Part shown: in pieces, positions 5,940 through 63,883 of the stretch
Layout: each line of letters begins with the position of its first letter
Position numbering within the stretch: position 1 is the stretch's first letter
Source: Stegostoma tigrinum
Taxonomy: Eukaryota
Length of the DNA stretch: 64,000 nt
Direction: 5' to 3'
NCBI RefSeq assembly: GCF_030684315.1
Contig: NC_081362.1
Span: forward strand, 14,502,589 to 14,566,588
Made by a program: the position numbers and the translations under genes
The notes under the pieces: model-generated
The model's input: the letters and a program-made list of their open reading frames with translations, nothing else
Databases searched by the model: none
What the model was told of the DNA's origin: nothing

Positions 5940-6357
5940 ATTAAACTCCCCCCACTGCATCACACAACCAGCCCAGCTCATCCCCTCCACCCACTGCATC
6001 CCAAAACCAGCCCAGCCTCTCTCTGCCTCCCTAACCTGTTCTTCCTCTCACCCATCCCTTCCTCCCACCTCAAGCCGCACCTCCATTTCCAACCTACTAA
6101 CCTCATCCCACCTCCTTGACCTGTCCGTCTTCCCTGGACTGACCTATCGCCTCCCTACCTCCTCACCTATACTCTCCTCTCCACCTATCTTCTTTTCTCT
6201 CCATCTTCGGTCCGCCTCTCCCTCTCTCCCTATTTATTCCAGAACCCTCTCCCCATCCCCTTCTCTGATGAAGGGTCTAGGCCCAAAACGTCAGCTTTTG
6301 TGCTCCTGAGATGCGGCTCGGCCTGCTGTGTTCATCCAGCTCCACACTTTGTTACCA
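5940..6357 (+). mobile_element. Penelope-like element terminal repeat with mutated hammerhead core
   Basis: Nearly identical to 17515-17927; pyrimidine-rich tract, then CTGATGAAGGGTCTAGGCCCAAAACGTC (6265-6292; GAAA changed to AAAA). Confidence 0.85.
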
Positions 6358-6390
6358 AGGATCGCAGTTTATTTTTCTCATTACTAAAAC

Positions 6391-6698
6391 AGAATCCCTA
6401 CAGTGTGGAAACAGGCCCTTCGGCCCAATGAGTCCACACCGAACCTCAGAGCATCCCACCTGGACCCATCCCCCTATAACCGACCTAATCTACCCCTCCC
6501 TGAACACTATGGGGAATCTTACATGGCCAATCCACCTACCCTGCACATCTTTGGACTATGGGAGGAAACCAGAGCACCCGGAGGAAACCCACGCAGACAC
6601 GGGGAGAATGTGCAAACTCCGCATAGATAGTCGCATGAGGTTGGAATCAAACCCAGGTCCCTGGTGCTGTGAGGCAACAGTGCTAACCACTGTGCCAC
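6391..6698 (-). mobile_element. HE1-like V-SINE
   Basis: Reverse complement of the 3692-3991 family; full length from tRNA head to tail. Confidence 0.85.
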
Positions 6699-6809
6699 TG
6701 TTTTCACCTGAACAACCCTTACAGGAAAAACAGATCAAAATTGGCAGGTCTCTATGCTGTAATGAATTCTAGGTGTTAATGAACATGGTGCAAAGATGAA
6801 GGCAAATTC

Positions 6810-7030
6810 AACACAGTGTGAAGCTGGAGGAACACAGCAGATCAGGCAGCATCAGAGAAGCAGAAAAGATGACGTTTCGAGTCAGGATCCTTCTTCAGCA
6901 ATGGGAAAGGGGAAGGGAGCTGGGAAATAAACAGAGGGAGGAGGGGTGGGGCTGCAGAAAGGTACGTGGATAGGGGGGATGATGATAGGTGGATGCAGGT
7001 AGGGAGGGGTGGAATTGGTCAGTGGGAAGC
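6810..7030 (-). mobile_element. Penelope-like terminal repeat with hammerhead-like core CTGAAGA..GAAACGTC
   Basis: Minus strand of 6871-6898 is CTGAAGAAGGATCCTGACTCGAAACGTC, followed by family sequence TGATGCTGCC..CTGCTGTGTTC. Confidence 0.75.
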
Positions 7031-7034
7031 AAAA

Positions 7035-7628
7035 TGTGAGGGAATAGTTTAAACAATAGATATTTTTTGAGACAAACTTTTCTCTTTTAAATAACCTGTT
7101 GTGATGATGCTGTGGTTTTAAGAAGTGTATTTTGTCCTGGTTTCTTTTAAGAAAGAGATTGAACGAGAGGCCCCAAGTTGTCTGCGGTAATATAAACAAC
7201 TTGTGACGCCTTGATTTTTTTAAAGTTGGAACAACAGAAGCATTCTGGATGGGCATGGTCAGCATGCACAGGATTTCTAGCCTTTTGTTTAGCTCTTATT
7301 GTGGTTATGTTAGAAAATCTGATTTCTGAATTTACCTTTTAGCCCAAGAGGTGTATTTGTGAAATGTTACTGTATTAGAACAGTTAATTATTAACAATTA
7401 CTGTATTTATTATTCAGTTAAGTTTTCCAATAGAGTTGACATTGTAAATTCCTCTTTCTTTTATTGTATTTTAACAATAGTGTTTGAATAAACTGTATTT
7501 TGCTTAATGACGAGTAGTTTGACCAGTTGTATTGCATCTGGAATATGGCACTTTACATTTGCCTTTAACAATAAGAAAAAGTTAGGGTCTTGGCTACGTT
7601 CTTAAAATGCCTAGTCTGGTCCTTAACA
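7035..7628 (+). mobile_element. Solo-LTR-like element
   Basis: TG...CA ends, internal AATAAA, 3' half similar to 10130-10350; no TSD recognised. Confidence 0.5.
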
Positions 7629-7955
7629 CGGCACAATGTTGTTTTATTCTTTTTAAGATATTTCACTGGCAGAATTGTTAAATGTCATTGTTTACTGCTA
7701 AATACCTTAGAAAAGATAAAATGACATGGCACAAATAGTTCCCCTACTTGCCCTTCACTTCTTCAAGTTATCTTTGTGATATTCTGCCTGCATCTCTGGC
7801 AATGACACCATCGTCCTAGGTAGGGCTAATCAACAAATCTAAAAGTAACTGATGATTCTACAGCTTTACAAAGATTTTCTTGCATAGTGCCTGAGTGTAT
7901 TCATACTGGAATGCATAATTTATCCATAGTCAGGAATTAGTAACACACAACCTAC

Positions 7956-8032
7956 CTGACAATCTCTTTGGCACAACCACTTGCAACTCCTGATTTTGCC
8001 ACAAGCAAATGTAAAAAAAGGGTGTTCAAAGG
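7956..8032 (-). CDS. CFAP61: CFAP61 coding exon 3 (PLNTLFLHLLVAKSGVASGCAKEIVR)
   Basis: gacag| acceptor, AG|gtagg donor, 77 nt; matches human PLNTLFMHLFVA...GCCKEILR. Confidence 0.93.
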
Positions 8033-8389
8033 CTGTCAAAATTTTAAAAAATATGCTTTATGTGAGCATAACTCATCCAGTGAAATATCAATAAAATTTA
8101 GTGATAGAAGTAAGTGATATTTTATAACATTTATCCAAAATCTGAAATGTAAACTATATAACATGTACATGCCAGAAACCGAGAACATATACATTTAATT
8201 GTTTTCTGTTAAAGAAAACACTCTCAACACAGTAACGGTTAGACAGTCTATGCAAAGCATCTAGACCATAACTTCCCCTACTCATATCTGGCTACATAAC
8301 TTGCAATTCACAATGTCTAGTCACACAGTACAGTGAAATTTACAGAATTCCCACTAAATAGTAATTGTTATATCATTGTGATGTAGAAG

Positions 8390-8850
8390 GCATGGGAGAA
8401 GGGAATAGGAAAATAGATTGGGATAATGAAAGACAGTAAAGATGAACAGGAAGGAGCGTAAGGTTAAATGTGAAAAGAAAGCAAAGGAGAAGGTGCAAGA
8501 AGACAAGAGTGGGTACAAGAATTATGCAGTGTTTAACTTAAGACAAAAAATGAGGGGCAGACATAGAATGGGAGGGAAAGTGGGAGTAAGGAGAAAAAGC
8601 AGGAAGAAAGTAATGTGGGGAAAACTGCATATTGGAGAAACAGGAGGAAGGCAAGAAGGAAGAGGAGGCAAGAAATGTGAAAGGAAGGGGCAAGAAAGAG
8701 GGAAAAGAAGGAAGGATAAAGCAGGTGGAAGTAAGTCAAAAGCAGGGCTGAGATAAAAAGGAAGGAATAGAGAAGAAAGGCATGTGAAGTCAGGAATAGG
8801 GGCAGAAGGAGAATTCAGGATTAGAAATTTCAGGAGGGAGAAAAAAGATT
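8390..8850. repeat. Purine-rich (GA) low-complexity tract
   Basis: Strongly A/G-biased plus strand; produces spurious K/R/E/G-rich and F/L/S/P-rich ORFs. Confidence 0.7.
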
Positions 8851-9499
8851 TGAATTTTGTGTAGATTTTCTTCTTAACAAGCATTTTTACATTGAAAATA
8901 CTTTGTTTTTATTATATTAATAAAGACTATAACTTGGAAATGGCTTGGTGCTGCACTAGGCAGCGGAGGGAGGGAAGTGGATAAAGATGATAAATATATG
9001 TGGTATGTGAAACATAACTCAGCCACAGAAAGAAGTAAAACATTCAGGGAAAGAAGCCGTAGAGGAAAATAACTCATTTGGGGTCTGGTTGAAAAATCAT
9101 TGGAGAGGGTAGTCAGAGGTAAAAACCTGGGAAGGAGGTATAGGTAATGGGGCTCCAAATTAAGTGAAACAACACGCAATTTTTATAAATAACTCTTAAA
9201 TTCTTTTGTTGATTGACAACAGTCTTAGCATGGCTGTATCAATCATACACATGAACAGTTGTGTGTTCATCAACAATGTTTGCATTAATACCTTCTTACA
9301 AATTATCTGACTTTGAGAATGTTGAATGCTTTGAAGTTCACAAAGTTCCTTGCCTCCCTACAATAGGATATTTCAAAACAGGGTCACCACAGACAGTATG
9401 TTATGGTCAGGTTTGACACAGGGGATGTAGATCCTATTGAGGGCTCCAATGATCAATATAGAGGGAAATAAAGCTAATTCTTAAAAGCATAAAAGTCTT

Positions 9500-9600
9500 T
9501 GGCTCTTGTGGTGCAGTGACAATGTCCCTACCTCTGACCAAAAGGTCTAAGTCAAGTCCCACCAGCCCCAGAGGTGTGTCATAACATGCCCAAACAGGTT
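9500..9600 (+). mobile_element. tRNA-derived SINE head fragment
   Basis: GGCTCTTGTGGTGCAGTG (A-box-like) ... GTCAAGTCCCA (B-box-like). Confidence 0.45.
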
Positions 9601-9731
9601 GAGTTGAAATGTATATAACAAAGGTTTAATTTCAGATTCATTGACATATGTTAGGCTTATTCCTAGAGCTAAGTACATACAAGTTTAAATGTGATGCTAG
9701 TACACCACTTACTGGTGTGATTATTATTAAT

Positions 9732-10355
9732 TGTGACTATACTCTGCCTTTTAAGAGATGATTTGTTTCTCTTGAAGAGGAGTGTTGACACCACGGTGTT
9801 AACATGTCTATTTTTGAAGCAGCAGTAAACAGCTTTGAGTTTCCTGAGTGTTTTCTTTGATTAGACAAAAGAAACATGGTGGGTGGAGTCAAGCTCACAT
9901 AGACCCAAGGTTTTGGCTGTCCTTTCAGTTGGGTTGTTTTGGAATCGACGCTGATAGATACAGCTCTCAGTCTGCTGTAGCAAAAAGCTTGAATTCTCTT
10001 TCTGCTGCTAGATTGTTTCTTTCAGTGTTCCTTTCTCCACAACTAGTAGAGCATGTGAGGAAAATCTGTTTTATGGAATTTGCTTTGGCTAAGAGTGTGT
10101 TTAGAGGATTCTATAATATTGAAACAGTTGATAGTTGAGTTAAATGATACATTACTTTGTTAAGTATTTCAGTAAAGTCAAACTGTGTACTTTTTTATGT
10201 TTGTATTTTAACTGTCTTGTAAGGATAAAGTGTGTTTTGCTTAAAGCCTAGTGATGGACCAATTGAATCACATCTGGAACACAGTAGCTTATACTTGCCT
10301 TTAAGGTCTAGGCTATCACTTTGATATACTTTGAGGGGGTTTGATCTCATCCATA
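9732..10355 (+). mobile_element. Solo-LTR-like element related to 7035-7628
   Basis: Shared blocks ATAAA.TGT.TTTTGCTTAA and GACCA.TTG.AT..CATCTGGAA; begins TGTGA. Confidence 0.5.
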
Positions 10356-11474
10356 GAGAAATGTAATCAGGTGTGGATCCAGTTAACATGGACTTTTCAT
10401 TGGAAATGTTCATAGGTGACAAGGTGTGCAAAAAAGTTAGATTATCTACATTACAGATTACTGCAATTATGTTCGGTCAATATTATTGGTATTATGACAG
10501 TGAGGACTTGAGGGTTTGAAAGTCATGACAGAACCAGGCCAATGTCCCAATAAAAATAAATGGGCTTTCTAGCCGGCCAACCTCTCCATCCGTCAGACTC
10601 TGATGCTGCACTGGGCCTGTTACATAAGTGGCTGGTCCAACTCAATCCCACCTCTGTTTCCCCAAAAAGAAAATGTGATGGTTAGGGAAATCCTTAATGG
10701 AGACAGGCAGAGCTGAGAACTTTTTTGACTCATGCTGCCTACCTCCTGCATGAAAATCCAGCCTTTGGAGTCTGCTAAATAACTTGGAAACCAAGAAATT
10801 GCTATTTGTTCCAAACCTTGAAAGCACCCAGTGAATGGAATCATTAAGAGTCACTTGAATCAGCATGAACTTCCACTCCTAAGCTGCTATGTTCACTGTA
10901 AAAATCCTTGAAAATGTTATTCTATGTTGAATAAGCAGGAACTGCATTTTGTAAACACATACTAACTTCATAATTACTGCTAAATACCATCAGTGGCCCT
11001 GAAATCGTCATCTGAATTTGTGGAATATTAAAAGTTTTCATATATGATTTTTTAAAAATTTAAGAACAATTCTGTTTTTATTTTTAAATATATTTATCCA
11101 TAGCTTCTATCTTAATCAAATCATTACATTTTATTTTACCATCAGTAAACATAAATCAAAAGATTTGAAGTTATCACACAGCAATGATGATTAATTGCTT
11201 ATCAGCTTGGGACAACAATGCCAAGATGTCTTGGCACCAAATTTAAACTACTAATAGGAAAGAAGAAAATCACACCACAGTAACTGCTAAATCTTTGTGG
11301 ACAGCTGTCTTTGTTTAGTCTGAGCAACTTTCCTTAGCTGCTCACTGCAAAATCCACACCAGTGAATACATTGGCAGAAAACATTTACCGTAGTCGTTAA
11401 GATATTTTGTCAATGCAGTACGTACTGTATTCCATATTCAGAAATATTATTTTTATTTTCAGGTTTCAACTCAC

Positions 11475-11625
11475 TGTGCATTTTGAACTGGGACCATATG
11501 TATGTAGCCAGGGTTCCCAGTTGTCTTTTTCAACAGCCTCAATGTTTGGGTAATCAAAAAAAGCAGCATGAGCTAAAACCTCTTTCTTCTCATTTTCCAC
11601 TGTCAAAGAAAGATTTGCCATTTCG
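11475..11625 (-). CDS. CFAP61: CFAP61 coding exon 2 (EMANLSLTVENEKKEVLAHAAFFDYPNIEAVEKDNWEPWLHTYGPSSKCT)
   Basis: ttcag| acceptor, |gtgagt donor, 151 nt; matches human EKANLAVTLCNDKEEIMAQATFLDYPN. Confidence 0.93.
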
Positions 11626-12699
11626 CTGAAGATGCAAGAAAATAACACATAACTCTTAAAGAAACTCTGGTCTTGCACTCATTCACTGACTAAAATACTT
11701 TTATGACCTCAGGTCATCTCAATACACTTTACTGTATATAAGACACTTCTGAAATGTAACCACTGCCTAATATACAAAAATCAGTTTGCACAAAACAAGG
11801 TCCTACACACAGCAATGATATGAAGTCCAGATAATTTCTTTTGCTCTTGTTGGCTAGGATTAGGTATTGGCTCAGACACTTTTGTTTTCAAGTATTGCCA
11901 TGGGGCCTTTTACATCAATTCCAACAATGCTTAAAATAGATTTGACTTCATGTCGTGTCGCTGGCACTTGCTAAGATAGGTAGTAAACCCAAAGTAATGA
12001 AGGGCCTAATGCCAAATTTTTATTTTAGAAATCTTTGTGGGCTGGTCTGTTATGAATAGGTGTGAGGTTTGTTCCACTTAGGATTTCTTACCGTAAATGT
12101 GGTCTAACGTGCAGCCACCAAGAAGCAGAAGTTCTCTCTGGCTCTAATGTACACTTGAGGGATGCTGCTGGCTGTTTTTAAAACTGTCCATTTAATCTGA
12201 AGAGGCTTAATTTTTATACCAAGGCACTTTATTCTAGCCTCGTTGCATCTGTTCTAACCTTGCTAGCTCCCACATTAGAGCTTATGATAAGTCTTCATTT
12301 TCTCGTCAAACAAAAATATACTTCACCATTGGCGATAGGGACCTTAACCACGTCCACTTATCTTGCACTTCTGTTGTCACCTCTTCACCTTGTTCCCAAA
12401 AACCACAGTAAAAACCTCAACAATGGATCATCCTCTGGCATCTGACTTGCTTCAATTTTAAGCATTATTGGGAATGATGTATAAGGCCCCACAGCAATAC
12501 TTAAGAGCAAGAGTCTTGGCCAATATTTATCCGAACCAATGATAGCAAAATAAATAATCTGGGCATTATATCATTGCTGTGTGTGGGATCTTGTTTTGAG
12601 CAAACTGGTGATGACACCACCAAACACATCCCCTTTCCCTCTGGTAGAATACTAAAAAGTCAAACCTTAAAGATCTTTATCTAAATAAATGCAGCATTT

Positions 12700-15418
12700 C
12701 TAACTAGATGAGTTGATAGCAAAAATTGAAATACAAGATTATGGATTGATAACAATTATAGAGTTGTAACCAATATTGCAAACTCGATGTCCAAAGGTAT
12801 TTGACGTTTTGGAAGAATAGGCAAAAGGAAAACAAGATAGAATAAAAGAGGGAATCAGTGCAGCGGTGTGTAGTGACATAGGCACAATGGATTGTGAAGT
12901 AGAATTTGGGTGGAAACAAGAAATAACGAGGGAATGAAATCATGGGTTGGAATTGTCTAAAGATGACAAAGAGTTGCCTCAATGTAGGTCAAAGTATAAA
13001 GTGGGAAGCAATGGAAGTGCAATACAATTATTATGCGTGATTTTAATCTGCTGTTAACTGGACAAATCAGATTGGCAAAGGTAACATGGAAGACAATTTT
13101 TAGAGTTCATCAGGGATATATTGGAGGAACTACTCAAGAACAGTCTGTTTTACATCCAGTAATATGTAAAGAGGTTAGATGATGAGGTCTGATGAGTCGC
13201 TGCGGGTAGCAGTCACAACATACAAGAATTGCAGATTCGGTTTGTGGATGAGCAACTCAGGTCTCAAAACAGTGCCCTTAATTTGAAAAAAGGTAGTTAC
13301 AGTGGTATGATAAAAAGTTGTTTAAAGCAACTGGGAAATAGACTAAAGGGAAGGTCAATGAATGAGCAGTGGCAGCTGTTCAAGCAGACATTTCATAACG
13401 CTAAGCAAAAATTTATTCCAGTCAAAAAGAAGGATTTGAGAACCATGAACCACCTATGGTTAACAGTGATAGTCAAGGAGAATATCCAATCATAAATTAG
13501 GTATACTAAACAAAGACTAGTTACAAGCCAGAGAATCAGGATTTTGTAGAAACCAATGGCGTATGACGAAAAAGCTATTAAAAAGGGGTGAAATTGAAAG
13601 TAAACTGACAAGAAATATGAGAATGAATGGCAAGAGCTTTTGTGCATATATAAGAAGAAAGAGAGTAGCTAAAAGATATTTGGGACACAGGAGGATACAA
13701 CTCGAGAATTAATAACAGGGAATAGGAAATTGGTACTTAAATTGAAATCAATGTTTTGCATCAGTCTTCATAGTGGTGGACACTATAAACACCCCCAAAA
13801 TATAACAGTTAAGCAAGGTGCTAATGGAAGGAAAAATATTCGCTCATAAGTGGAAAAGTATTTGAAAAACAAATGGGACTAACGGTACACAAATCACCAG
13901 GACCTGATCCAAGGATTTTAAAAGAAGTGGTTGCAGAGATGATGGAGGCATTGGCCAAATATTCTAGAGCTCATCTTGAGAGGTTTTCAGTAGATTGGAA
14001 ATCATGAATGTCATGTCTCTGTCCAAGGAGGAAGGGAGATAGAAAGCAGGAAACTACTTGGTAATTAGCTGAACGTCAGTTATTGGGAAAATGTTGGAGT
14101 CCATTATTAGCAGGATATTTAGAAAATTTTAATGCAATCAACCAGCGTCAACATGGTTTTGTGAAAGGGAAATCATGTTTAGCAAATTTGCTAGAATTTA
14201 TTGAGAATATAACAAATAAAATTGATAAAAGGGAGCTGGTAAATGTAGTGTGTTCGGATTTCCAGATAAGGTTCCAAATAAGATGTTATTGTAACAGATA
14301 GGAGCTCACTGTACTGTGAGTAATGTATTAATATGGATTGAGGATTGGTTTATATACAGAAGACAGACATTTGGCATTAATATGTCGTTTTCAGGTTGAA
14401 AATATGTAACTAGTAGAGTGCCATGAGAATTGGTCCTGGGGCCTCAATTATTTACCATCTGTATTAATAATTTTGAGGGGGTAAATGTTGGATGTATCCA
14501 AATTTGTTGATGATACACTAATAGGTAGGAGGGCATACTATGATGAGGATATTAAGAATTTGCAATGGGATAGCAATAGGTTGACTGAGTGAGTAAAAAA
14601 CTTGTCTGACAAAGTTTAATGTAGGAAATTGCAAGGTCATGTGCTTTGCCGGGAAGAACCAAAAGGTGAACTATTACTTATGTAGAGAAAAACTTCAAAA
14701 AATGCAGTACAAAGTGATCTGGGCGATCTTGTATACAAGGCATAAAAAGTAAGCTTGCAGACAAGTAGTTAAGAAGACAAATGGAATTTTGGCCTTCATA
14801 ACTATGTGGTAGAGTTTAAAAATAGGGAAGTCTTGTTACAACTGTAAAGGGTGTTGGTGAGGCGACACCCTGAAGTACTGTCTTGGTCCTCGTATTTCAG
14901 AAAGGATATACTGGTATTGAAAGCAGCTCAAAAAAGATTCACATGGCTGATTCCTGGGATGAAGGGATTGACTTTTCAAAAATGGCTGAAATGGTTAGGC
15001 CATTATTTATTACGGTTTAGAAGCAGGAGGGATAATCTTATTGAAGTGTACAAAATTCCGAGCATCTTGACTGGGTAGATATTGAAAATACAATTCCACT
15101 ACTGGGAGAATCTTAAACTTGGCAACATAGTTACATAAAAAGGGGATACTTATTTAAAACTATGATGTGAAGGGATTTATTCTCTCAGAGGATAGTGAAC
15201 GGCTGGAATTCTCTACCACAGAGTTGTAGAGGTTAGATCAAAGAAAATGTTTAAACAGAGAACAGATAGATTTTTGAACTATTAGGAATTGAGGGCTACA
15301 AGCAGATGCCACAAAAGAGGAGTTGAGGCCCGCACAGATCAGCCATAATCTTACTGAATGGCAAGGCAGGCGTGAGGGGCCAAATGTCTACTCCTGCTTC
15401 TACTTCTTATGATTTTAT
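12700..15418 (+). mobile_element. Decayed CR1 LINE (~2.7 kb, APE-RT remnants and 3' tail)
   Basis: QHGFVKGKSCLANLLEF, remnants of the GVPQG and FADD motifs, QKRFTWLIPGMKGL; CR1 tail ...CTCCTGCTTCTACTTCTTATG. Confidence 0.9.
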
Positions 15419-19330: not shown

Positions 19331-19332
19331 AA

Positions 19333-20254: not shown

Positions 20255-20256
20255 CT

Positions 20257-53322: not shown

Positions 53323-54899
53323 TCACTCATTGTATTTAGTAAATGATTTGTAGTGTCTGATTGCTTTTACTGATTTCTTTATCCAATTTCTATATTTCAC
53401 AAACCGAATTAAAGTTTCAAGACCCCAAGTACTGTTTGTAGGATCTTACTGGCAGCAAAACGAGATTTTCAGCTATTATGCTTCCACACAATATGGTTTG
53501 GATTAGTTTCCAATTCCTCTTCAGAAATATTGATACATTTCAAATACTTCACTCGCAGCTTTGGGATTCATGATCTGCTTTGAAAACTGTGTGACAACCA
53601 TAGATTGGTGTGGGAATTTGAATTGTAAGTAGGAGATGCAACATTTTTAAACAGCATAACTTGGGTCCAGACAACAACATACTTTGGAAATACCTCCCTG
53701 CCAATTTAATTTCTTTGAATCAGCTAATCAAAATAGTAAGTCACCTATGCATGAAGACTTGAGTCCAGACTACAATGCTAAACTTCTTAATACTCAAATA
53801 TATGCGGAAATATTCACTGTATTCTCCTTTGATCTCGTTAAACACTGGAAAATGCTTTCATTAAATCAATTAAAACTATTTTATGAAATGCAACCCAAAA
53901 TTCTTACATCAAAACTAAAAACAATATGGAATCAAAACTAGTCGAGTGGAATACATAAATTTTGAAACTGACATTTGTAGGAGAGTTCAAACGATTAAAA
54001 CTAAATACTTCAATTAACTAGATAACTGAGAAATGCTTTGCATTAAGCGTAAGTTGATAAGGTCGAAGAGATCCTCTTCCTAAAAACTGCCAGCGAATCT
54101 CACTTGACACTTAACAGGTAGATACTTAGCTTCCATTTTTAATTTGCCATGCTAAATTCAAAGCATTTACATATACCAATAGATGTTTGCTATTAGATTA
54201 GAGGACATGCGATGTTATAAAGATCATGACAACTATATCACTTAGTTTTTAAAATTAAGATGTGTGCCTTTAAGGCTAAAAGTCTAATTACTGCTAAGAA
54301 CTGCTGTATGAAGTCAAGCATTTCAATGTTGTTCAGAGTGCAGGTCACATCAGGATTGCTTGTCTTTCGAGTAGAAGACTGCTACAGTCAAATTAAAAGT
54401 TCCAGATATTTTCACTCTTGAAACAGTGGGGAGCTTATCAAACATTCCAAATGACTACCTTTATTTGTACTTTGCCCTGAAAAATGTGCGCTGTCACTGG
54501 ACAGATCGTATAAAAATGAATATAATTGGCAAATTACTACTGACACCGCTGATGGTAATTTCAGATAATTCCACAAAGTAAGGAACATTATTCCATACGA
54601 AACATAGTTATTTATAACATGAAGGAGACCAAGACTGACTGCTGTTAGGTATGCACAAGGAGAATTTATGCATATATCATTCAACAAACAGCAGATATTC
54701 TTACTGGAGTATTTTCTGTTCTGGGAAAATTTCTAATTTCTTTACAGATTATTTTAAAGAATGTCAGGGAAAAGTAATGCAGTCAAAATGAGTGCTAGAT
54801 GCGTTAAATTTATCAAAATAAATTTGGCATTTCCAAACAATACAATGTATGATGAAACTGTAAAGTCACATTAATGTAACATTTCAATTCAACAATATC

Positions 54900-56760
54900 T
54901 TATATTTAAATAGCACAACTTACGGAGCCGCCAGCAGTTTCACAGGAATGCTATCAAACAAAATTAACATTAAGCCATAAACATAAAAGAAACACTAGGA
55001 CAGATTACCAAAGGTTTAGTCAAATTATTTTAAGCAGTATCTTAAAGGAGGACAAAGACAGAGAGAAAGATATGGAGCAAATTCCACAGTTAATAGCTTC
55101 TTGAGGGAGGGGTACAGCCACTATTGATAGGCAATTAACATTCAGGAATGCTCAAGAGTCTAGGTTTGGAGGAGATCTCGTTGAGTCACAGGCCGGACAA
55201 AGGCTAGACATGTAGGGAAGTCGTGGAGAGATTTTTAAATGAAAATTTTAAAACTGAGCCTGTAATTAACCAGGAACTAATGTCAGTCAGCAAGGTGACA
55301 GGTGTATCAGACTTGGTATGATTTCGGAGTTTAGACAGTAGGGTCCCATGTGACTACAGATTTGTGTAGCGTGCAAGTTGAAAAGCCAGCTAGGAGTATA
55401 CTGGAATAGTCCAGTCTAGGTAACAAAGCATGGTTGAGGCCTTTATCAGCTGATGAGCTGAGACAACAGTTTATTGTTATAGAGAAGGAAACTGGCAGTC
55501 TAAATGGTAGCACAGATGTGTGGCTAGAACCTCATCTTTTGGGCCAGATACAATCACAAGGTTGTGTATAGCCCTAAATAAAAACAGAAATCCTGGGAAT
55601 ATCAATAGGTCAGAATACACTCAGAGCTGAAAACAGAGTTAGTAATTCAGGTGGATGACTTTTCATCAGAACTGTAAATAGCCTAGAACAGCCTTACGCA
55701 GCTGCCAAGGAGAGGAATGGTGTCAAGAGTTAGGGAATAAGGCTTGTTTGGACACCAAAGACAATGGCCTTGGCCTTCCCAATATTTAGGAAGGTGAAAC
55801 GTCCTGTTTTCCAGTATCGAGTACTAGACAAGCAGTGTAACAACTTGAAGAGAGAAGTGCGGAAATAAAGGTTATCGTGAGGTATAGCTGGTGTCAGGTG
55901 TCTATGTGGAATCGGATACTGTGTTTTCAGATCACACCACTGAGGGGCAGCATGCACACAATAAATAGGAGTCAGATACTTAAGATGAAACTAGAGACAA
56001 CGCTATGGGCAGTGAGAAGCTAATGCAGACAACTGTCTAGACAGAAACGGATGGGAAGTGAAATGTAAACAGACAAGTGAAGTCCCACATAGCTGGACAA
56101 CAGCAGAGAGGTTAGGATGGTGGGTCAATCATGTCAATTGTCGCAGGCAGTTCAAGAAGAATGAAGCAGTAGAGTTCACTTTAATCAGTTCACATGGAAT
56201 GTCATTTCTGAACTAGATAAGAACCATGTCAGGACCATGGCAAGGTTGCAAATTTTATCAGAGGTTCAAACATGGAGTTCTGGGAAAGGTGGATATGGAT
56301 TGGCAGCAGCACATTCAAGGTCTTTAGAGAGAAAAGCAAGGCTGGAGATTAGACAAATAATTTGCAATGAGGGAGAGAGTTAAGGCTTTTTTAAAAAGGG
56401 TGATGATGGTAAATTTGAAGAGGAAGAGCCATTAATAATCTCACTTTATACAGGTCGGTGGTGGTGGTGATGGCGGGGGGGGGGGCGGGAGCGGAGCAGA
56501 ATGACAATCTGTCATTTGGTGGGAAAAAAGATACAAGTTCAAGAAACCTTACAGGAAACTCGGCCCAGTGGCCTAGGAAAGAAAGCAGTGAAGGCAGTTG
56601 CACACATGCTGATCATCTCAGTAACAATGAAACTTCTTGCCTAGGTAGTTAGGGTTAAGGGTGGAGAAGGCAGAGAACAGCTTGTAAAGAAGATTTGCAG
56701 TGGTGCCTTTGCATCTGAGGATGATTATAGAATAGCCAGGTAGCCAGTTTTGGCAAAGGA
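54900..56760 (-). mobile_element. Decayed L2 LINE
   Basis: HALLPRLDYSSILLAGF and LNIGKAKAIVFG are L2 RT C-terminal motifs; contains a PLE family-B fragment at 55578-55675. Confidence 0.8.
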
Positions 56761-56787
56761 GGACAGGAACTCCTCAAACTTTAAGTA

Positions 56788-57017
56788 GAGATAGTAGGAA
56801 CTGCCATTGCTGCAGAATCTGCAGATAACAAGGTGTAGAGCTGGATGAACACAGCAGGAGAGGCAGCTTCAGTCTGTAATAACATTAGGGATGCTATTCC
56901 TCAAAACCAGCCTTATCTAAAAACTTCTTCAGGGTCCAGATCCGAAACGTCAGCTTCCCTGCTCCTCTGATGCTGCTTGTCCTGCTGTGTTTATCCAGCT
57001 CTACACCTTGTTATCTC
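56788..57017. mobile_element. Fold-back PLE mini-element with unrelated ~55-nt spacer
   Basis: Inverted arms AGATAACAAGGTGTAGAGCTGGAT..ACACAGCAGGA and TCCTGCTGTGTTTATCCAGCTCTACACCTTGTTATCT; flanks ACTTTAAGTAG and ACTTTAAATAG. Confidence 0.8.
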
Positions 57018-57396
57018 TAATACTTTAAATAGTCTAGCCAGATTTGGCAGTGAATAGTCAAACCAGATATTTGCCAGGTCTATTTAACACTGGATCCTTT
57101 GGACTAAAGGGAATGAAGAGAAGGGCAGGACATATAGAAACGACCGGGGCGAGATAACTCTAATTGAAGTTAGTGGTTTAGATGAGGCTGGTTGAGGAAC
57201 AGCATCTGCAACATTATTACAGCACATAAATAATGCTCAAATTAGAACATATTAGGATTTAAATTTTTGAAACAAATGATAGTAAGTTTAAAATGTAATT
57301 AATCTATCTAGGGAAAAGGCACATTTGATATCAGAAAATACAAGTTTTATCTGACACGTGTACCACATATTAGTGAACATGATATTGGATCCTTAC

Positions 57397-57487
57397 TGTA
57401 ACCCATTAGCTCTCCTCCAGGTGCCTCTGCAACAATGAAATATTCTGGCCAATGAGCGAGATACTGCAGGTAAAAGGGTATTCCATA
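57397..57487 (-). CDS. NAA20: NAA20 exon 3 (YGIPFYLQYLAHWPEYFIVAEAPGGELMGY)
   Basis: tgtag| acceptor and |gtaagg donor; 91 nt. Confidence 0.97.
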
Positions 57488-58736
57488 CTACACACTTAAG
57501 AAAAATAACCACGAAGAAAAGCCTAATAAGAAACGTCAGATTTATAGTAAATCAACCATATAACAAAATACATTCCATAAATATAACTATTTGTTATAGC
57601 TTGCAGTTTTGTTTTGAACATGTCAAAGGAAGCTAATTAAATGCAATTTTTCACTGCACACTACTCCCTCCCATTTCTGATTTCTAAAATAGCAAATACT
57701 TCTGTTTTCCCACCTCAGATCAACATGCAAGAGATGGGGACATAGCAGAAGATCACTGACCTAATAATCCAGAGACCCTTGCCAATGCTATGGGGTCACT
57801 GCTTAAATTCCACAGGTAGAATTTCAATTAAATTGATAAATTTGGAATTGAAAACTAAACTCAGTAATGGTGACCATGAAGTTGTCAGCGATCATCAGAA
57901 AAATGATCTGCCTGGTTCACTAATATCCTTTAAAAGGAGGGCAGTGTGCCATCTTTACCAGTCTGACTTACATATGACTCTAGACCCATAGGTTGACTGC
58001 TAACTATGCTCTGAAATGATCTAGCAAGCTGCTCAATTCAAAGATCAAGGAATGGCTTCCAAACAGTACTAACAACGATGCTGATCAGTGTTTGTACTTT
58101 CAAGAGTTCGTAACCTAAAATGGTAAAATATCAAAGTTGTATGTAGTACACGTTCAATGCTGTCCCCAAATGGCTAGATGTCATTGGACCAACTCTACAC
58201 TGAGCAAAGAATCACAATGTCATACAAGTACAGTAACTCAACAACTAGAGTTTGAGTGAAATGCTTTTGTAAACTATGGCTCTAGAAGCGATTGCGTGAA
58301 TGCATCAAGTCAAATTAATTTAAAAATCTTCACTGCACCACAAGGAGAAAGGAACTATACCAGCCAAATTAAGATGGTATGTCCAATTCAGGTTAGGCCA
58401 AGGTAAATCCAATAATCAGGGCATGAGCTCATTGAATGGCAACATGTTATTTTATAGCACAACTTTTGAAGGTTGTGAGCACTTATGACATCAACTAAAG
58501 ATGACTTAACAAATTCAATTAATCATAAAGGACTAAAATATTCTGAATCCACCATGCAAATTATTTATGTTAAGAAACCAGAAATGAACTAAACGTGAAC
58601 AATAAAGCATTCTTAATAATGATTAACTAAAATAAAGGGCATATTAAAGCATATGAAACCCAATGGCATTGCATGTTACATTAAATCAAGATTCCCCACA
58701 AGAAATCAAAGTGGTAACAGATGGGCACAAGGATAC
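57488..58736 (-). other. NAA20: U12-type GT-AG intron of NAA20
   Basis: 5' GTATCCTT; branch-like TTTCTTAAG ~10 nt from the AG; no polypyrimidine tract between them. Confidence 0.9.
57740..58085 (+). mobile_element. tRNA-SINE (second family), diverged
   Basis: TAATCCAGAGACC...CTGGTTCACTAATATCCTTTA shared with 47068-47372. Confidence 0.7.
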
Positions 58737-58761
58737 GGTTTCCGTTAGTGGATCCAAATTT
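58737..58761 (-). CDS. NAA20: NAA20 exon 2, 25-nt micro-exon (NLDPLTET)
   Basis: tgcag| acceptor; followed by the U12 donor. Confidence 0.96.
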
Positions 58762-59159
58762 CTGCAATACAAAGGAAAGCAAATTACAACAGGTTCAATC
58801 TCCCATTTTAAATATTAAGTGGTATTAGATCACATAACAGGGGTTTCTTTGGAAAAGCTCTAAGTAAATCCACAAATCGCTTTCAGCACACAGGTATCAC
58901 TTTCAAAAAATACATTTTGAAATAAACAAAATTACTGCAGCACAAACTTTGCAAAACCCTTTGGTCAATAAACTCTTCAAGACAATTCAACTTAATAGGA
59001 TAAGATGTGTGAACATCATGCAATGAATGAATTGCGTTCAGCAATACCACAGAGTCACATATTTTGCCAGCCATTAGGCAGAGTTTACAAGTGGCTTTCA
59101 GCTGGGATTTACGATAACAAGTAGAAACACTTTAGTTTCCTTCCTTCCTGACTAGGCGC

Positions 59160-59575
59160 AGAGGAACAATGGACAGAGACAAAGGCTAGCATTCGGCCCT
59201 TCGAACCTGTCTCGCTATTGGATAAGATTATGGCTGGTCTGTCGTGGTCTCAAGTTCACTTTCTGTCTTTCCCCATGACCCTCAAACACCATCTATTAAA
59301 ACCTACCTAACTTAGCTTTTCATTAAAGCTAGGGAAAAGGATTCCACAGATGAATAATACTCTGAATTAGAAAGAAAACCCACTTCACTTATCCATAATC
59401 TCTTTGCAGACTCATCATCTATTTCTCTATCTACCTTTGTGTCTTCAGCAAATTTAGCGAACACGTATTTGATCTCTTCTTCGATTATAGAGATAGCAAA
59501 TGTTTGAGGCCCCAAAATTGATCTATGTGATGCTCTGCCAGTTATAGTTTACAACGTGAGCCCTCTCATTAGTGC
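59160..59575 (-). mobile_element. Decayed CR1 fragments
   Basis: LGPQTF...KFAEDTKV; CR1 tail at 59165-59240. Confidence 0.7.
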
Positions 59576-59612
59576 CTACTTTCACACATTGGGCCCATCA
59601 TCAAAAACATGC

Positions 59613-59768
59613 TACAGAGATAGTACGAACTGCCGATGCTGGAGAATCTGAGATAACACGGTGTGAAGAAGGTGGTCAAGAAGAAGGGTCGTAAACCGAA
59701 ATGTCAACTTTCCTTCTCCTCTGATGCTGCTTGGCCTGCTATGTTCATCCAGCTTCACACCATGTTAT
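59613..59768. mobile_element. Fold-back PLE mini-element with 13-bp TSD
   Basis: TSD ATCAAAAACATGC at 59600-59612 and 59769-59781; inverted tail on the left; decayed core GAAGAAGGGTCGTAAACCGAAATGTC. Confidence 0.85.
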
Positions 59769-61067
59769 ATCAAAAACATGCAGTTGATATTATAATTCCA
59801 AACATATCCAAGGAAGAAGCATGCTTCATGCCAACCATTATCTCTTGCTGGACACTCTGAACAGCTTTAGTGATTTCACCTTCCAAGAAAGTCAAACACA
59901 GAATCAAAGAGGGTTTGACTGTACACTGCAACAGGATTTTCCAACAGGGACACACAGTATATTTGCGAATACAATGGGAAGCTGTGTCAACAATACGCAA
60001 CTAATTCAATTGTCTGCCTCCTCTGCATAGATACAGTAGCATATTCTAGAGGTTCGTAGGTACTGCAATGGAAGAATTCTGTACTTATTCCCACGTTACC
60101 GTGTATCCAGGATAAAAGTGTTCTTGTGTATACAAATTTAAGGGTATGGCAATTAATTATGCAATTTCTGCAGGACAACAGCAGATTCATTTTTCTGAAA
60201 GAGAACAGTTCCCAACACAAGGGGTACAAATTTCCCAAGTGCCTCAAGGTATTTGATCTTTACAATGATGTTTCCATTGTAAATTTTTTTTTGAAATGTT
60301 TTGTTTAAAGGAGTGTACATATTGGCTTGCAATGACATTTAATGGACTGGATGAGGTATGGACCTGTGTTTTTTTTTTAAAATGGTTACTGAAAGGACAT
60401 TTGGGCCCTTTTTTCAAAAGATGCATTCTGGAAATCATGACTTAAGTTAATAGTTTGGACACGTTCACAAAAAAAATTACCATTCCCGACCTTAAGTTGT
60501 CAAAAACTGTGGCTACTGGGTATTGTCTGGAGCTCAGTTGGTAGGTAGCATACTGAAATTGGTCATCCAGCACATCCATCTATTTTGAAAATTCTTTGGA
60601 GAGAGGGTAAAACATGGTATAGCTGTTTTCCTAAGTTTCTGGAGAACTTCTTATCATCTCCTGAACAAACTGATTCTGAAAATATCCCAGTAACAACCAT
60701 GTGTGTTTTGTGACCTATCGACATGTGCTAGGATACCAGCATCTGGCTTGGTTCCAGTTACTTTTTTTTAAAATCCCCCACAGTTAACTATTATTTTTCC
60801 ATGCTTTTGTGTGCACTAGCTCTCTGTAGAGAAGGTTTCGTGCATTTTGCTTTAAACTGATGTGGAGATGAGTGCACATGTATTTTAGCCTATTTAGAAA
60901 GGTAGATACTGTCGTATTCAAAGCTGAGTTTTAATGACTTGTACTTTTATTGAATAAGTATTGTTTTATAATAAAATCAATAGTCATTATCAATTACAGA
61001 AACCCAGTTGAAGGATCTGTACTCAAATGGAAAGATTAGCATTTATACACATTTGACAATTTTGATA

Positions 61068-61166
61068 CAAAAACCAAAATTTCTGTAAAAGCTCAGCAGG
61101 TCTGGGCTCATCTGTGGACAGAAATCAGAGTTAACATGTTGGGTCCAGTGACCCTTCCTCAGAACT
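61068..61166 (-). mobile_element. PLE family-B terminal repeat fragment
   Basis: AGTT-CTGAGGA-A-GGGTC(ACTG)GACCC-AACATGTT-AACT; GAAAC is mutated, helices I and II are intact. Confidence 0.75.
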
Positions 61167-61864
61167 TGGCATATTGACTTGTTTTAAAAATTATATGTTG
61201 CATCCTAGCCAATTAGTAAAACTTCAGAACAACACTTTGCACATCCCCACCTTGGTTGAAACAAAATGGACTTGTTTCTGTACATTACTTTGAAACAAAC
61301 TCACATGTTGCTGTATCAGAAACCCTCTGTTCCAATCCTTTCAATTCAGTTATTGCACATGTTACTGCACTGACCAAAGTCCAGGAAAGACCTCCACTGT
61401 GACCAGCAGGCCATGCCTGCTTGTTTTGTTTTACCCTTCAACAGCACATAGCAGTTAATCATGCACTGCCACTCCAGTTGCCTCCCTAGAGTCCAGCTCT
61501 GAGAGATTAGCTTTGTGTGATGCACGAACCTCAGCTCCAGCAAATGTTTTTCATGCCCTGCCAACTGGTCAACTCAAGAGTCATCCTATAGTAGGGCCTT
61601 TTATGTTTTTTGCCACACGTTGGTCCTTGCCATTGTCCGTGTCTCTCACTCTGAGCAATATTGTGTAAAATCTTAAGGTCTGGCTCAATCACCAATACTG
61701 CAACATAACCAACCTTCTAAACCTACTTCACGAGCTTCTGTCATTTTACTCAAACTTCTCTCAACCATTCCAATTCACTTCTGATGTTTCTTCATCTAAT
61801 ATTACTGCATGTTATTCAATCTTCCGTTACAAGACTCTGCACTGCATAATGCATTAATGCCCAT

Positions 61865-62575
61865 GAGAAAACGGACTTATATTGTGGGGAACCAGAGGCC
61901 AAAAATTTAAGGTGATTCATAAAAAAATCCAGAGACAAAGCAAGGAAAACTACTTCATGCACAGTGTTATGGCAATCTGGAAATTGATACCGAGAAGATT
62001 AATGGAAACATATTCAACAGCATCTTTCACAGGGAAATGTTTGAAGATGTAACATTAATGTTAACAAAACTATAGGGAGAGAGAGTGGAACTTAATGGAT
62101 AAACATAGGAGTATAGATCTAATAGGCCATTGTACTCCTGCTTCACTGATCCATTGCAACCATTCAGCATGTTAACACAGTCTCACTGAACAGTTTGCTC
62201 TCCCTGTACAGCAGTCAGCACAGAGGGCTGTAGAAGCTAAGTAAGTATATCGAAGGCTGAGACAGACAGATTTGTGATCAATGTGGGAATCAAGGGACGC
62301 AGGGGAAAGGCAGGAAAGTGGAGTCGATTATTATCGAGTCAGTTGTTATCTCATCGAGTGACAGAGCAGGCTTACAGGGGGGAGTAGGCCAGAAAGCCTA
62401 CAATTACGCTTGTGGCCCTGGATATTTCACCCTATAGATCAAAAACATAGAAAATAGGAGCAAGGAGTCGGCCATTCGGCTCTTCTAGCCTACTCAGTCA
62501 TTCAATATAGCCAACCAAGTTAGATCCCTGTTCCCGCATTCTCCCTGCACAATTTAATCCCCTTTGCCTTTAGAA
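61865..62575. mobile_element. Cluster of short CR1 3' fragments
   Basis: 61865-62150(+), 62215-62415(+) and 62443-62575(-) resemble the CR1 RT end and tail. Confidence 0.6.
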
Positions 62576-62609
62576 GACCAACTTTCCTATCACAATGCAG
62601 TTTGCTCAC

Positions 62610-62662
62610 ATGTTGTTGAAGCGAAAAAGGTCGTCACAACAAAACGCACGTAAAGTGGTCAT
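62610..62662 (-). CDS. NAA20: NAA20 (NatB catalytic subunit) exon 1, MTTLRAFCCDDLFRFNNI
   Basis: ATG at 62662, AT|gtgagc donor; six exons total 537 nt = 178 aa + stop. Confidence 0.97.
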
Positions 62663-63325
62663 TTCAGTAGCGCACGTCCCAGACGACGACAATCTTTAGC
62701 CTTTCCCCTTTCACCCCAGATACGAGAGGAACTGACGCAGCTCACGAGCGACACAAAACACGTGCCTCTGTGCGTCGTAACCACGCCCCGTTAACGTCAC
62801 AATTCATTTCACATCACGGCCACGCCCCTCCGCGTTCCAGTCACCCCATCAGAATGACCCTGGCAACGTTCCGGCTTTGCTCCTACAAACATGCTGCCCA
62901 GCTCCTACCCACAGCGACTGTCGCCCCGCTTTATACCAATACCCCCATTTTACCAATCTCCTGCCCCGCTCCGCTGTTCTGCAGAATTGCCGCACCCGTA
63001 GACCCCGCCCCCGTCCCACACCAATCAGCAGCCTCGTCCCATCCCCAGCACCGCCCATTTGGCCGAGCGTCTCACGCAGCCCCGCCCCAGCACCGCGACG
63101 GACGCAAAACATAGCCCCGCCCACCCACGGCACTGTCGTCCTCTCGCCCCGCCCCGCCCGGACGCAAGCCGGCCCCAGCCCCGCCCCCAGAACGGCCTGG
63201 TCTCGCAGACGTAGCCCCGCCCACCCCGATCACTGCCGATTCTCCCTGCCTCTTGTGCCCCATATTTCTTGAACAGCGAACCTCGAGGAGATGTAGTCGA
63301 CTTCGATCAGTGATCGAGGGGTGGG
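62663..63325 (-). promoter_or_regulatory. NAA20 CpG-island promoter and 5' UTR
   Basis: CpG-dense; several GC boxes (CCCGCCC at ~63004, 63081, 63115, 63154, 63180, 63216); CCAAT boxes at ~62936, 62954, 63021; ACTACATCTCC (ZNF143/THAP11-like) on minus at ~63287-63297. Confidence 0.8.
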
Positions 63326-63404
63326 TGGTTGAGTTATTAGTTTGATTTTCTGTGTATGATTCTGTCCCTGGGGTAGGGTGCAAAGGCAGCTAAGTCGTGC
63401 ATTA

Positions 63405-63883
63405 TAACAAAGAGGCAGGCGTAGCTTGGGCCTATGCGGGTGCCCATGGGCACCCCCTTTGTCTGTAGGAAGTGGGAGGAATCGAAAGAGAAGTAGGTAC
63501 CCGCGCCCTCTACCTCCTCCAGAATTTCCAATTCCCTGGCCCCCAACACCTCACTTTCACCATGGACGTCCAGTCCCTGTACACCTGTATTCCACATGCA
63601 GATGGCCTCAAGGCCCTCCGCTGCTTCCTGTCCCGCAGGCCGGACCAGTCCCCGTCCACCGACACTCTCATCCGCCTAGCTGAACTCCTCCTCACCCTCA
63701 ACAACTTCTCTTTCGATTCCTCCCACTTCCTACAGACAAAGGGGGTGGCCATGGGTACCCGCATGGGCCCAAGCTATGCCTGCCTCTTTGTACGTTATGT
63801 GGAACAGTCCTTCTTCTGTACCTACACTGGCTTCACACTTTGTTATCTTGGATTCTCCAGCATCTGCAGTTCCCATTATCTCG
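63405..63883 (+). mobile_element. Internally deleted Penelope-like element with RT fragment, 5' inversion and 13-bp TSD
   Basis: FTMDVQSLYTCIPH...LTLNNFSFDSSHFLQTKGVAMGTRMGPSYACLF are PLE RT motifs; TSD AAGTCGTGCATTA at 63392-63404 and 63884-63896; ends in the family tail. Confidence 0.92.

Follow-up and report, generated by a model that had tools for sequence, protein, structure and literature searches.

Do the minimal hammerhead ribozymes of animal Penelope-like elements (PLEs) cut in living cells, and for what? These motifs are barely active in vitro, protein is needed in the sole purified system, and no corresponding RNA ends have been seen in Anolis. The window (the whole 64,000-nt stretch of Stegostoma tigrinum contig NC_081362.1 analysed here) carries many such motifs. 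With about 300,000 young copies in the genome, copy boundaries become a read-out of RNA templates. The motif, the elements and the insertion layout have been described before; what is new is that copy starts peak at the base where cutting is predicted.

Hammerhead cores in the window

PLE copies and genes of the window are as follows, with copy starts counted from C3 of the core.

5013..16078, -: exons of CFAP61, 11406-11624 from a family match, 5013-5132 and 15932-16078 from exon-like frames alone
5946..6354, +: family A 3' piece with pyrimidine-rich 3' UTR, core 6265-6292 (G12 lost) and short 3' end; 91% to the full unit in L063
6810..7029, -: older copy of family A whose core (6871-6898) has a stem II mismatch and a disrupted helix I
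17061..17929, both arms: single two-armed family A insertion, 16-bp target duplication
17061-17348, -: its inverted arm, tail and GIY-YIG piece
17350-17929, +: its second arm, GIY-YIG end, 3' UTR and core
17839..17866, +: family A minimal hammerhead core, intact, with cleavage predicted 3' of 17866
18703..18915: decayed two-armed family B copy
19334..42995, +: CRNKL1, start codon to last coding exon (PDB match, Pfam HAT repeats, exon-like frames)
19902..20656, -: family B copy, GIY-YIG remnant 20507-20656, core 20257-20286; CRNKL1 intron 1, antisense
about 19969-20255: SINE-like insert interrupting that copy
21826-22113: remnant bearing the CX2-5CxxC linker
25087..25221, -: short family A copy, -4 to tail, 12-bp target duplication, core 25190-25217; CRNKL1 intron 1, antisense
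33729..33861, -: short family A copy, -3 to tail, intact core 33831-33858; CRNKL1 intron, antisense
43686..43885: older two-armed family A copy, both arms starting inside the core
45306..45394, +: older family A copy starting in the core, G12 lost
50799..50925, -: tailed family A copy starting within the 5' half of the core
52236..62662, -: NAA20, end approximate (PDB match, motif scan)
53202..53308, -: old family A copy starting near the core end; NAA20 intron, sense
55576..55674, -: decayed family B copy starting at -5; NAA20 intron, sense
56785..57016: family A copy with two arms, the tailed one on - and the short one on + (starting at +7); 7-bp duplication
59612..59770: two-armed family A copy, 13-bp target duplication
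61064..61166, -: family B copy starting at -4, G12 and A14 lost; NAA20 intron, sense
63407..63882: RT fragment of family A (63499-63831, +) attached to the tail, with short inverted arm and 13-bp target duplication; without core

A sequence-only reading of the window had named five complete cores and nine decayed or truncated ones. All five match CTGANGA-N9..22-GAAACGTH at the positions and on the strands given; 200 dinucleotide-preserving Markov shuffles yielded a mean of 0.01 matches and a maximum of 1. The label complete fits 17839(+) and 33831(-), which keep everything. It does not fit the other three: 25190(-) has lost C11.1 of the stem II closing pair, 20257(-) closes stem II with G.U and has had the 3' strand of helix I severed from it by the SINE-like insertion 1 base past the cut site, and 6871(-) has a stem II mismatch and lacks pair 2.1-1.1. 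The nine further copies are all present: G12 is lost in those at 6265, 45310 and 61133, those at 43790, 50902, 53303, 56931 and 59680 start inside the core, and that at 55645 is a decayed family B copy. The decayed family B copy at 18703-18915 is additional to that list.

Motif architecture and genome-wide census

The intact core (C3UGAN-G8A9, G12AAA, U16.1 H17) has 151,765 matches in the genome, as against 17, 22 and 37 for control patterns. This total of about 152,000, or about 47 per Mb on both gene strands, bears out the very large number that had been anticipated. The extra base 9.1 is A in 138,398 matches and Y in 12,269, versus 1,098 otherwise, and stem II reaches at least 4 bp in 75 of 81 sample matches. 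The palindrome ACGT, noted earlier in the window, replaces helix III in the majority of copies in each of the five groups, in a search that demanded ACGT up to CpG decay; the predicted duplex of this palindrome is worth only -3.1 to -4.1 kcal/mol. The motif departs from the canonical Rfam type I form, being without helix III and having a helix I of 2-4 bp, and no Rfam hammerhead family matched at E <= 1 in the 64-kb window.

Helix I has 2 bp in family A and 4 bp in family B, as first described, and 3 bp in family C, with compensatory changes. Pair 2.1-1.1 is U-A in families A and B and A-U in C, pair 2.2-1.2 takes the states C-G, U.G and U-A over the five groups, and pair 2.3-1.3 is U-A or G-C within family C. 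The two family A pairs are held in 73/77 (U-A) and 68/77 (C-G) copies, and the four family B pairs in 21, 19, 16 and 16 of 24. Among the stem II variants reported earlier, GGGT/GCCC and GGGTC/GACCC are true family states, but GAGTC/GACTT is uncommon, only 2/24 family B copies having A-T at that pair. The core is constant across families and helices I and II covary, so the outcome that would have spoken against a hammerhead, a core no better conserved between subfamily consensuses than the flanking repeat, did not arise. In the predicted fold of the family A monomer, a rod ending at +29, pair 2.1-1.1 has a probability of 0.0.

Parent elements and insertion layout

One locus, L063, holds a full PLE unit of 3,583 nt, comprising core, tail, RT and GIY-YIG frame, pyrimidine-rich 3' UTR and the next core. 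The core is thus found in both terminal repeats, 3,583 nt apart, in one such unit among 18 long-frame loci. RT and C-terminal GIY-YIG share one frame (921-1,059 aa), with Pfam matches to RVT_1 at E 3e-6 to 6e-5 and to GIY-YIG at E 0.006 in two of three frames, both below curated cut-offs. A CX2-5CxxC linker precedes the endonuclease in the family A frame and in the window remnant at 21826-22113; it is absent upstream of the family C endonuclease. The family A frame starts about 165 nt after C3, the family C frame ends inside the motif, and related GIY-YIG pieces precede the family B cores. Together with the PLE RT remnant (63499-63831, 92% identity to the family A protein) and the GIY-YIG remnants (17202-17584) recognised earlier in the window, this supports the original identification of minimal type I hammerheads in PLE terminal repeats joined to RT and GIY-YIG. 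The window copies probably belong to two Neptune-type PLE families, with a Poseidon-type family elsewhere in the genome.

Inverted 5'-truncated copies, a one-sided tail of 30-40 bp and a target duplication make up the layout of endonuclease-bearing PLEs, and all three are seen here, the copies often being two-armed. Close inverted pairs consist of one short and one tailed arm in 51/52 cases for family A and 25/27 for family B, with two fixed 3' ends at +92 and +130 from C3. Target duplications of 7-17 bp are present in 38/65, compared with 1.6% of mismatched flanks. In a sample of 1.5 Mb inside 40 myosin and kinesin genes (two gene families), which also served for strand counts, 5' ends fall at -10..+12 in 134/307 family A and 69/154 family B copies, and only 18 and 14, respectively, fall in the 90 nt upstream. 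The motif 5' edge is the start of about 40% of family A copies, and this pile-up likely marks the start of the element RNA. Fold-backs at the edge number 4,277, with blunt -4/-4 joints in 13 of the 50 listed. Family C copies have no starts at the motif edge, so a step in which cDNAs run to an RNA 5' end at -4 is not general.

Copy starts at the predicted cleavage site

Family A copies start at +27, +28, +29 and +30 in 491, 3,244, 425 and 499 cases, a peak one base wide on the predicted cleavage bond. These cut-site starts, roughly 1% of young copies, likely derive from templates cut by the ribozyme. The peak is invisible in the 1.5-Mb sample, where 6/307 starts lie within 3 nt of +28. Fold-backs at AGCT(+28) gave 771 matches, 47 of the 50 listed being exact, i.e. 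about 725; other palindromes gave 38 (ACGT, +23), 54 (CTAG, +12) and 23 (GGCC, +55), and the entire +16..+20 interval gave 176. Twenty +28 fold-backs are separate insertions: 16 have a duplication, 19 pair a short with a tailed arm, and several sequence variants are represented; one of them (L283) additionally carries a tandem copy joined at +28. Among 100 listed +28 starts, 63 are fold-back arms using the AGCT palindrome, and a further 10 rely on a 3-nt match at +37.

Replication of the peak in families other than A is weak. Family C has 58 starts at the cut versus 31 and 34 beside it, a 1.8-fold excess (p 0.001; 0.015 without four blunt fold-backs whose arms both end exactly at the cut, joints that the neighbouring patterns could not reveal). 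The family B peak (86 versus 9) is confounded, because joints or deletions at a repeated GTT could account for 52 of the 86 starts and the comparison is without a -1 control.

Alternative explanations

The main rival for the +28 peak, unlikely but to be taken seriously, is a second transcription start within the terminal repeat, the ribozyme never cutting the copied RNA and the motif binding protein, folding or being a passenger. Base +28 in family A is the A of a C-A step, and C-A is a common polymerase II start dinucleotide, so that a second start site would give an identical peak. The step is C-A in family A and T-A in family B, where the peaks are largest, and C-T in family C, where the excess is smallest; the main pile-up, moreover, is at -4, away from the cut. 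Catalytic mutants leave insertion in vitro unchanged and no Anolis RNA ends were seen (PMC11167929), and Naiad PLEs thrive without the motif (PMC8557442). Nevertheless, the catalytic core, beyond the stem, stays constant in five groups while the helices change, the peak has single-base width on the predicted bond, the four blunt family C fold-backs end there on both arms, and the Anolis motif cleaves with protein and shows C3G/G8C rescue (PMC11167929). It is improbable that the +28 joints arose by DNA repair or later deletion, with long head-to-head palindromes collapsing or cDNA ends being trimmed to any 4-nt palindrome, or by RT stalling at the foot of the inactive hairpin. The use of AGCT or the +37 match by so many listed starts and the end of the predicted rod at +29 would suit such origins, but at the other three 4-nt palindromes, of which two lie closer to the main end, joints number 23-54, compared with about 725, and CpG decay (9% per site) accounts for about two-fold at most. 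Starts at +29 and +30 are at background, and without palindromic fold-back arms the +28 excess is still about 2.5-fold.

The density of intact cores, many of them within genes, and the 208/307 family A copies near a partner might suggest active ribozymes that cut host pre-mRNAs or are retained for a host role, as the sequence-only reading implied; we consider this very improbable. The partners are on the opposite strand, a same-strand core lying within 1 kb in only 6/104 cores, and the predicted monomer fold is inactive. Cores in the 40 genes are sense in 74 cases and antisense in 73, which lends no support to a special meaning of intronic location; intact solo copies divide 21/22 and 8/6, the family A strand fraction having a 95% interval of 0.33-0.65 that excludes only strong depletion. 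Of the window copies, the three with cores in CRNKL1 introns lie antisense, and every sense copy in NAA20 is broken. Within one subfamily, core divergence is 2.4% versus 1.4% in the flank (the latter figure anchor-biased), with 9% at CpG sites. Single copies thus decay neutrally which, with no intronic strand bias, makes it likely that they do not cut host pre-mRNA; dispersed copies are likely inert in place. Least probable of all, the short copies might form a non-autonomous retrozyme or SINE that propagates itself via small circular RNA. Short, defined units of 100-135 nt in very high number recall one, and a non-LTR retrozyme family is reported in one cartilaginous fish in a preprint (bioRxiv 10.64898/2026.07.22.740005). 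Yet the tandem monomers of non-LTR retrozymes are not seen (4/104 cores with a same-strand core within 500 nt), units are not bounded cut site to cut site, lengths form a continuum into the coding frame (84/307 family A copies reach >100 nt upstream), and helix I lacks the canonical 6-bp form.

Model

We propose, as the probable explanation, that the motifs are minimal type I PLE terminal-repeat hammerheads whose scattered copies are inert and whose ribozyme cuts a small share of the element's own RNA. Scattered end pieces would be copied by the element's enzyme from two fixed internal start points. Both cut target strands may prime reverse transcription, one per start point, and the two cDNAs would join head to head. 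Most short cDNAs would extend to the RNA 5' end, some 4 nt ahead of C3; transcription likely starts there, and helix I would thereby be limited to about 4 bp. Some 1% of templates may already be ribozyme-cut, cleavage probably being aided by the element's protein or a second copy; both cDNAs would then end in self-complementary AGCT and anneal there. A lone intronic motif would adopt the inactive rod fold, with no partner or protein, and hence not cut.

On balance, with rather less assurance, we favour reading the genome as a germ-line fossil record of PLE hammerhead catalysis, holding thousands of insertions from RNA cut at the exact predicted bond, most insertions deriving from uncut RNA starting four bases before the core. 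If correct, this would provide evidence of in vivo cleavage by a vertebrate PLE hammerhead whose helix I has 2 bp, give a first estimate of how frequently cutting occurs (about 1% of young copies) and chart a twin-priming mechanism of insertion, all within the densest hammerhead set found reported in the literature used. Two exact RNA 5' ends are named, -4 and +28, which a cap versus a hydroxyl would distinguish. A density of about 47 intact cores per Mb, on both gene strands, is evidently tolerable to a vertebrate.

Comparison with known systems

The minimal hammerheads of metazoan PLEs (Cervera and de la Pena 2014, PMC4209133), with no monomer and low dimer activity, share with ours the core boxes, the extra base between 9 and 10.1, G10.1-C11.1, the palindromic 15.2-16.2, the pLTR location, several covarying families per genome, mostly solo copies and opposite-strand pairs. 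The scale differs (about 152,000 here, about 9,000 in Xenopus and about 4,000 in coelacanth, with different descriptors), as do stem II and helix I, 4 bp and 2 bp in family A compared with 7-8 bp and 4-5 bp in schistosome examples; a 2-bp helix I is seen in D. virilis. Cartilaginous fish are not named in that text and supplement as searched.

Neptune-clade PLEs (Craig et al. 2021, PMC8557442; Arkhipova et al. 2013, PMC3846280) have in common with ours the single RT and C-terminal GIY-YIG frame, the CX4CX2C linker, partial tandems, inverted 5'-truncated copies, the 30-40 bp one-end tail and target duplications. Here, unlike in those described, the product most often seen is a very small end fragment, and two-armed copies nearly always carry the tail on one side alone (51/52). 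Arkhipova et al. attribute head-to-head palindromes to self-priming on an antisense template (PMC3846280), whereas our data would be compatible with sense RNA as the template and with both strands of the target acting as primers.

Animal non-LTR retrozymes (Cervera and de la Pena 2020, PMC7229834; Li et al. 2026 preprint) likewise carry PLE-related type I hammerheads at very high copy number, 126,247 in axolotl. They are tandem, non-coding monomers with canonical helices expressed as circles, whereas ours are dispersed end fragments of a coding element.

The closest mechanistic parallel is with the Anolis Poseidon element PAc (Frangieh et al. 2024, PMC11167929), whose cleavage is protein-assisted. 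There, as probably here, the tail is delimited by two internal sites of RT initiation, each strand of the target is extended, product length is set by the RNA 5' end and uncut RNA is the main template. The PAc frame starts inside the motif, unlike the family A and C frames. In Anolis, Frangieh et al. report, none of the RNA-seq reads terminated at the cut; in the genome examined here, by contrast, copy starts peak at the cut.

Cores in the window and across the genome

The genes and repeats that bear on the hammerhead copies of the window are as follows.

CFAP61, minus strand, gene
CRNKL1, from 19334, plus strand, gene
NAA20, from 62662, minus strand, gene
2534-3341, plus strand, decayed pol fragment of LTR type, close to where the window begins
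17202-17584 and 20507-20656, GIY-YIG remnants
18703-18915, decayed core copy
19969-20255, tRNA-like SINE, presumably HE1-like, which splits the family B core at 20257 from its downstream part and lies one base past that core's predicted cut
20752-21948, minus strand, CR1/L2-like reverse transcriptase (RT) frame of 398 aa, inserted in an older remnant of a Penelope-like element (PLE; 21826-22113 plus 20507-20656)
63499-63831, PLE RT remnant, 92% identity to the family A protein

Between 5013 and 62662 the gene order is CFAP61 (-), CRNKL1 (+), NAA20 (-), the first two genes being arranged head to head; the human arrangement is identical.

The five cores that the sequence-only reading called complete all matched the pattern where it had placed them; 200 shuffles yielded 0.01 matches on average. 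The word complete holds for two of them, 17839(+) and 33831(-), which retain core, stem II and helix I, whereas the other three have lost the closing pair or helix I. All nine decayed copies it named were found, the copy at 18703-18915 being additional, and the RT and GIY-YIG remnants it described are present. The copies form two related families, A and B, alignable over the entire 135-nt unit. An Rfam scan of the window returned no hammerhead family; the matches at the palindrome 43722-43884 were of microRNA-hairpin type and are attributed to chance only.

The expectation of a very large number of motifs was borne out in the 3.2-Gb genome (835 contigs). A single exact 31-mer occurs 89,060 times, and relaxed whole-core patterns gave 138,398, 12,269 and 1,098 matches, a total of 151,765 or 47 per Mb; their reversed controls gave 17, 22 and 37. 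Stem II has at least 4 bp in 75 of 81 whole-core matches from an unselected sample. Published surveys give about 9,000 minimal motifs in Xenopus (PMC4209133) and, for the axolotl with its 28-Gb genome, 126,247 motifs of type I (PMC7229834; bioRxiv 10.64898/2026.07.22.740005), but descriptors differ and both comparisons are rough. At G000:C1:2722793-2722882 two intact family A cores lie on the same strand, 59 nt apart, as a candidate natural tandem dimer.

Carrier elements and the making of copies

Element structure was taken from 18 loci with long open frames. One of them, L063, is a whole unit: core, tail, frame (first ATG about 165 nt past C3, the core base from which positions are counted), pyrimidine-rich 3' UTR and a second core, 3,583 nt from the first. 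The long frames match the Pfam RT (E 3e-6 to 6e-5) and GIY-YIG (E 0.006) models, both below curated cut-offs, and contain a CX4CX2C linker, which Craig et al. (PMC8557442) give as characteristic of the Neptune clade. In family B the cores are found some hundreds of bases 3' of related GIY-YIG pieces. Family C was not seen in the window and is without the linker (Poseidon type); it supplies most of the 12,269 matches and has a 6-bp stem II, with the reading frame stopping inside loop II (e.g. locus L241:3937-4446).

Head-to-head pairs account for 208 of the 307 family A copies. Where the two arms lie close together, the short one ends near +92 and the tailed one near +130, in 51/52 cases for family A and 25/27 for family B, and the same two ends are present in family C. 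A duplication of 7-17 bp accompanies 38 of 65 pairs, against 1.6% in mismatched flanks. This two-armed layout with duplication has already been described for PLEs (PMC8557442, PMC3846280). The two copy ends match the behaviour of an Anolis element in vitro, where RT starts at two internal sites and both strands are extended (PMC11167929). We infer that both target strands prime reverse transcription. Downstream of the core, families A and B both carry GATGCTG ... CAGCATC, an element that encloses a GCTG/CAGC hairpin and brackets the first RT start site (window 33729-33800, alignment), and both family A start sites come after ATTATCT. Together these are a candidate protein-binding and priming signal, for which the predicted folds are inconsistent.

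The 5' ends of 134/307 family A and 69/154 family B copies fall at -10 to +12, compared with only 18 and 14 in the adjoining 90 nt upstream. Fold-backs, the head-to-head joints of two inverted arms, that join arms ending at 0 to -4 number 4,277 genome-wide, blunt -4/-4 being the commonest (13 among the 50 matches listed). A transcription start at the motif edge would be the likely explanation of this pile-up, one that does not extend to family C. Throughout the Neptune-type groups, three in number, the bases around -4 appear initiator-like: young A has a TCT-like form, old A has CCA+1TTT and B has TCA+1GTT (17810-17838, 6899-6905, 61162-61168).

Copies that start at the predicted cut

The predicted cut lies between +27 and +28, and family A copy starts peak there on a single base (491 at +27, 3,244 at +28, 425 at +29 and 499 at +30). 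No cut-site pile-up was seen in a 1.5 Mb sample, whereas genome-wide patterns show one; with young copies estimated at 315,000, the +28 excess comes to about 1% of them. Genome-wide, 771 fold-backs have their centre in the four bases directly past the predicted cut, with the exact joint in 47 of the 50 listed, while other 4-nt palindromes gave 38 (+23), 54 (+12) and 23 (+55) and the whole interval +16 to +20 gave 176. Family B starts at the cut were counted but are confounded.

The simplest reading of these counts is that the ribozyme had cut the +28 templates. Its chief rival is a second transcription start at the C-A step, which would equally give a +28 peak. Family C has 58 starts at the cut versus 31 and 34, and its copies show no starts at the motif edge (4/33 begin at -37 to -45). 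Repair at AGCT, the palindrome directly after the predicted cut, would produce +28 joints, and fold-back arms make up 63 of the 100 +28 starts listed; the remainder still stands at about 2.5 times background, and we consider repair less likely. One amplified palindromic subfamily was rejected as the source of the AGCT joints on the first 20 exact cases: each is an insertion of its own, 16 have duplications, 19 are short plus tailed, and several variants occur, with variants common to both arms. RT stalling at the hairpin foot was rejected, with +29 and +30 starts at background. A 3' splice site fails for either start, as 30 family B loci have no common upstream exon; for the cut-site start, moreover, AG at +28/+29 would place starts at +30, where counts are at background. 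One arm at locus L283 (G000:C1:57606236-57606635) contains two end pieces in tandem, with the second one attached precisely at +28, resembling the result of a template jump from a 5' terminus at the cut.

Selection on the motif and copies in introns

Comparison of five groups (77, 24, 24, 8 and 7 copies) shows a fixed core between families. Pair 2.1-1.1 is U-A in A and B and A-U in C; pair 2.2-1.2 is C-G, U.G or U-A across groups, and 2.3-1.3 is U-A or G-C within C. Stem II has 4, 5 or 6 pairs, differing in sequence among groups. The weight of this covariation rests on the helices, because the search already demanded the core up to CpG decay. It argues that between families the motif is under selection. 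Between individual copies the sequences point to no such selection: in 91 young-subfamily copies divergence is 2.4% at non-CpG core sites, 9% at CpG sites and 1.4% in the downstream flank, the last biased low since the flank served as search anchor. An apparently better conserved core (2.9% vs 5.5% in the flank) disappeared once subfamily-diagnostic sites were removed, placing selection on source elements rather than copies.

Intronic copies were sampled in 155 stretches (1,504,098 nt) from 40 myosin and kinesin genes, each stretch lying between exons and oriented to gene sense. Of the 147 cores that a structural descriptor picked out (control 1), 74 are sense and 73 antisense. Among intact copies lacking an inverted partner the split is 21/22 for family A, with a 95% interval of 0.33-0.65, and 8/6 for family B; no strand depletion was found in these 1.5 Mb and 40 genes. 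A same-strand core lies within 1 kb of 6/104 cores, and for the family A monomer the predicted fold is a rod with the core self-paired. With no strand bias, few same-strand partners and a predicted rod fold, it is likely that scattered copies cut host RNA too little, if at all, for selection to see, although weak effects are possible.

Comparison with known systems

The observation as a whole is confirmed with corrections and its interpretation partly supported: PLE hammerheads in huge number stand, and a special role of their intronic site is not supported, given the 74/73 strand balance. Its significance lies in the cut-site footprint and two testable RNA ends, not in intronic location. Neither the motif count in this lineage nor the one-base cut-site peak turned up in the literature search. 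Lunse, Weinberg and Breaker (RNA Biol 14:1499) reportedly described very large motif numbers across many genomes and dimer cleavage, and cartilaginous-fish motifs may be among them.

That search returned no paper on shark PLE hammerheads nor on copy starts at the cut. In the accessible text of Frangieh et al. (PMC11167929), ends at the cut were looked for in Anolis RNA and none were seen, and Fig. S2 of that paper maps genomic copy ends. The cores do not form a retrozyme array, nor is the motif a canonical hammerhead, and in the window it matches no hammerhead family of Rfam. It agrees, in every feature testable here, with the min-HHR, the minimal type I hammerhead, as the available text of Cervera and de la Pena describes it (PMC4209133).
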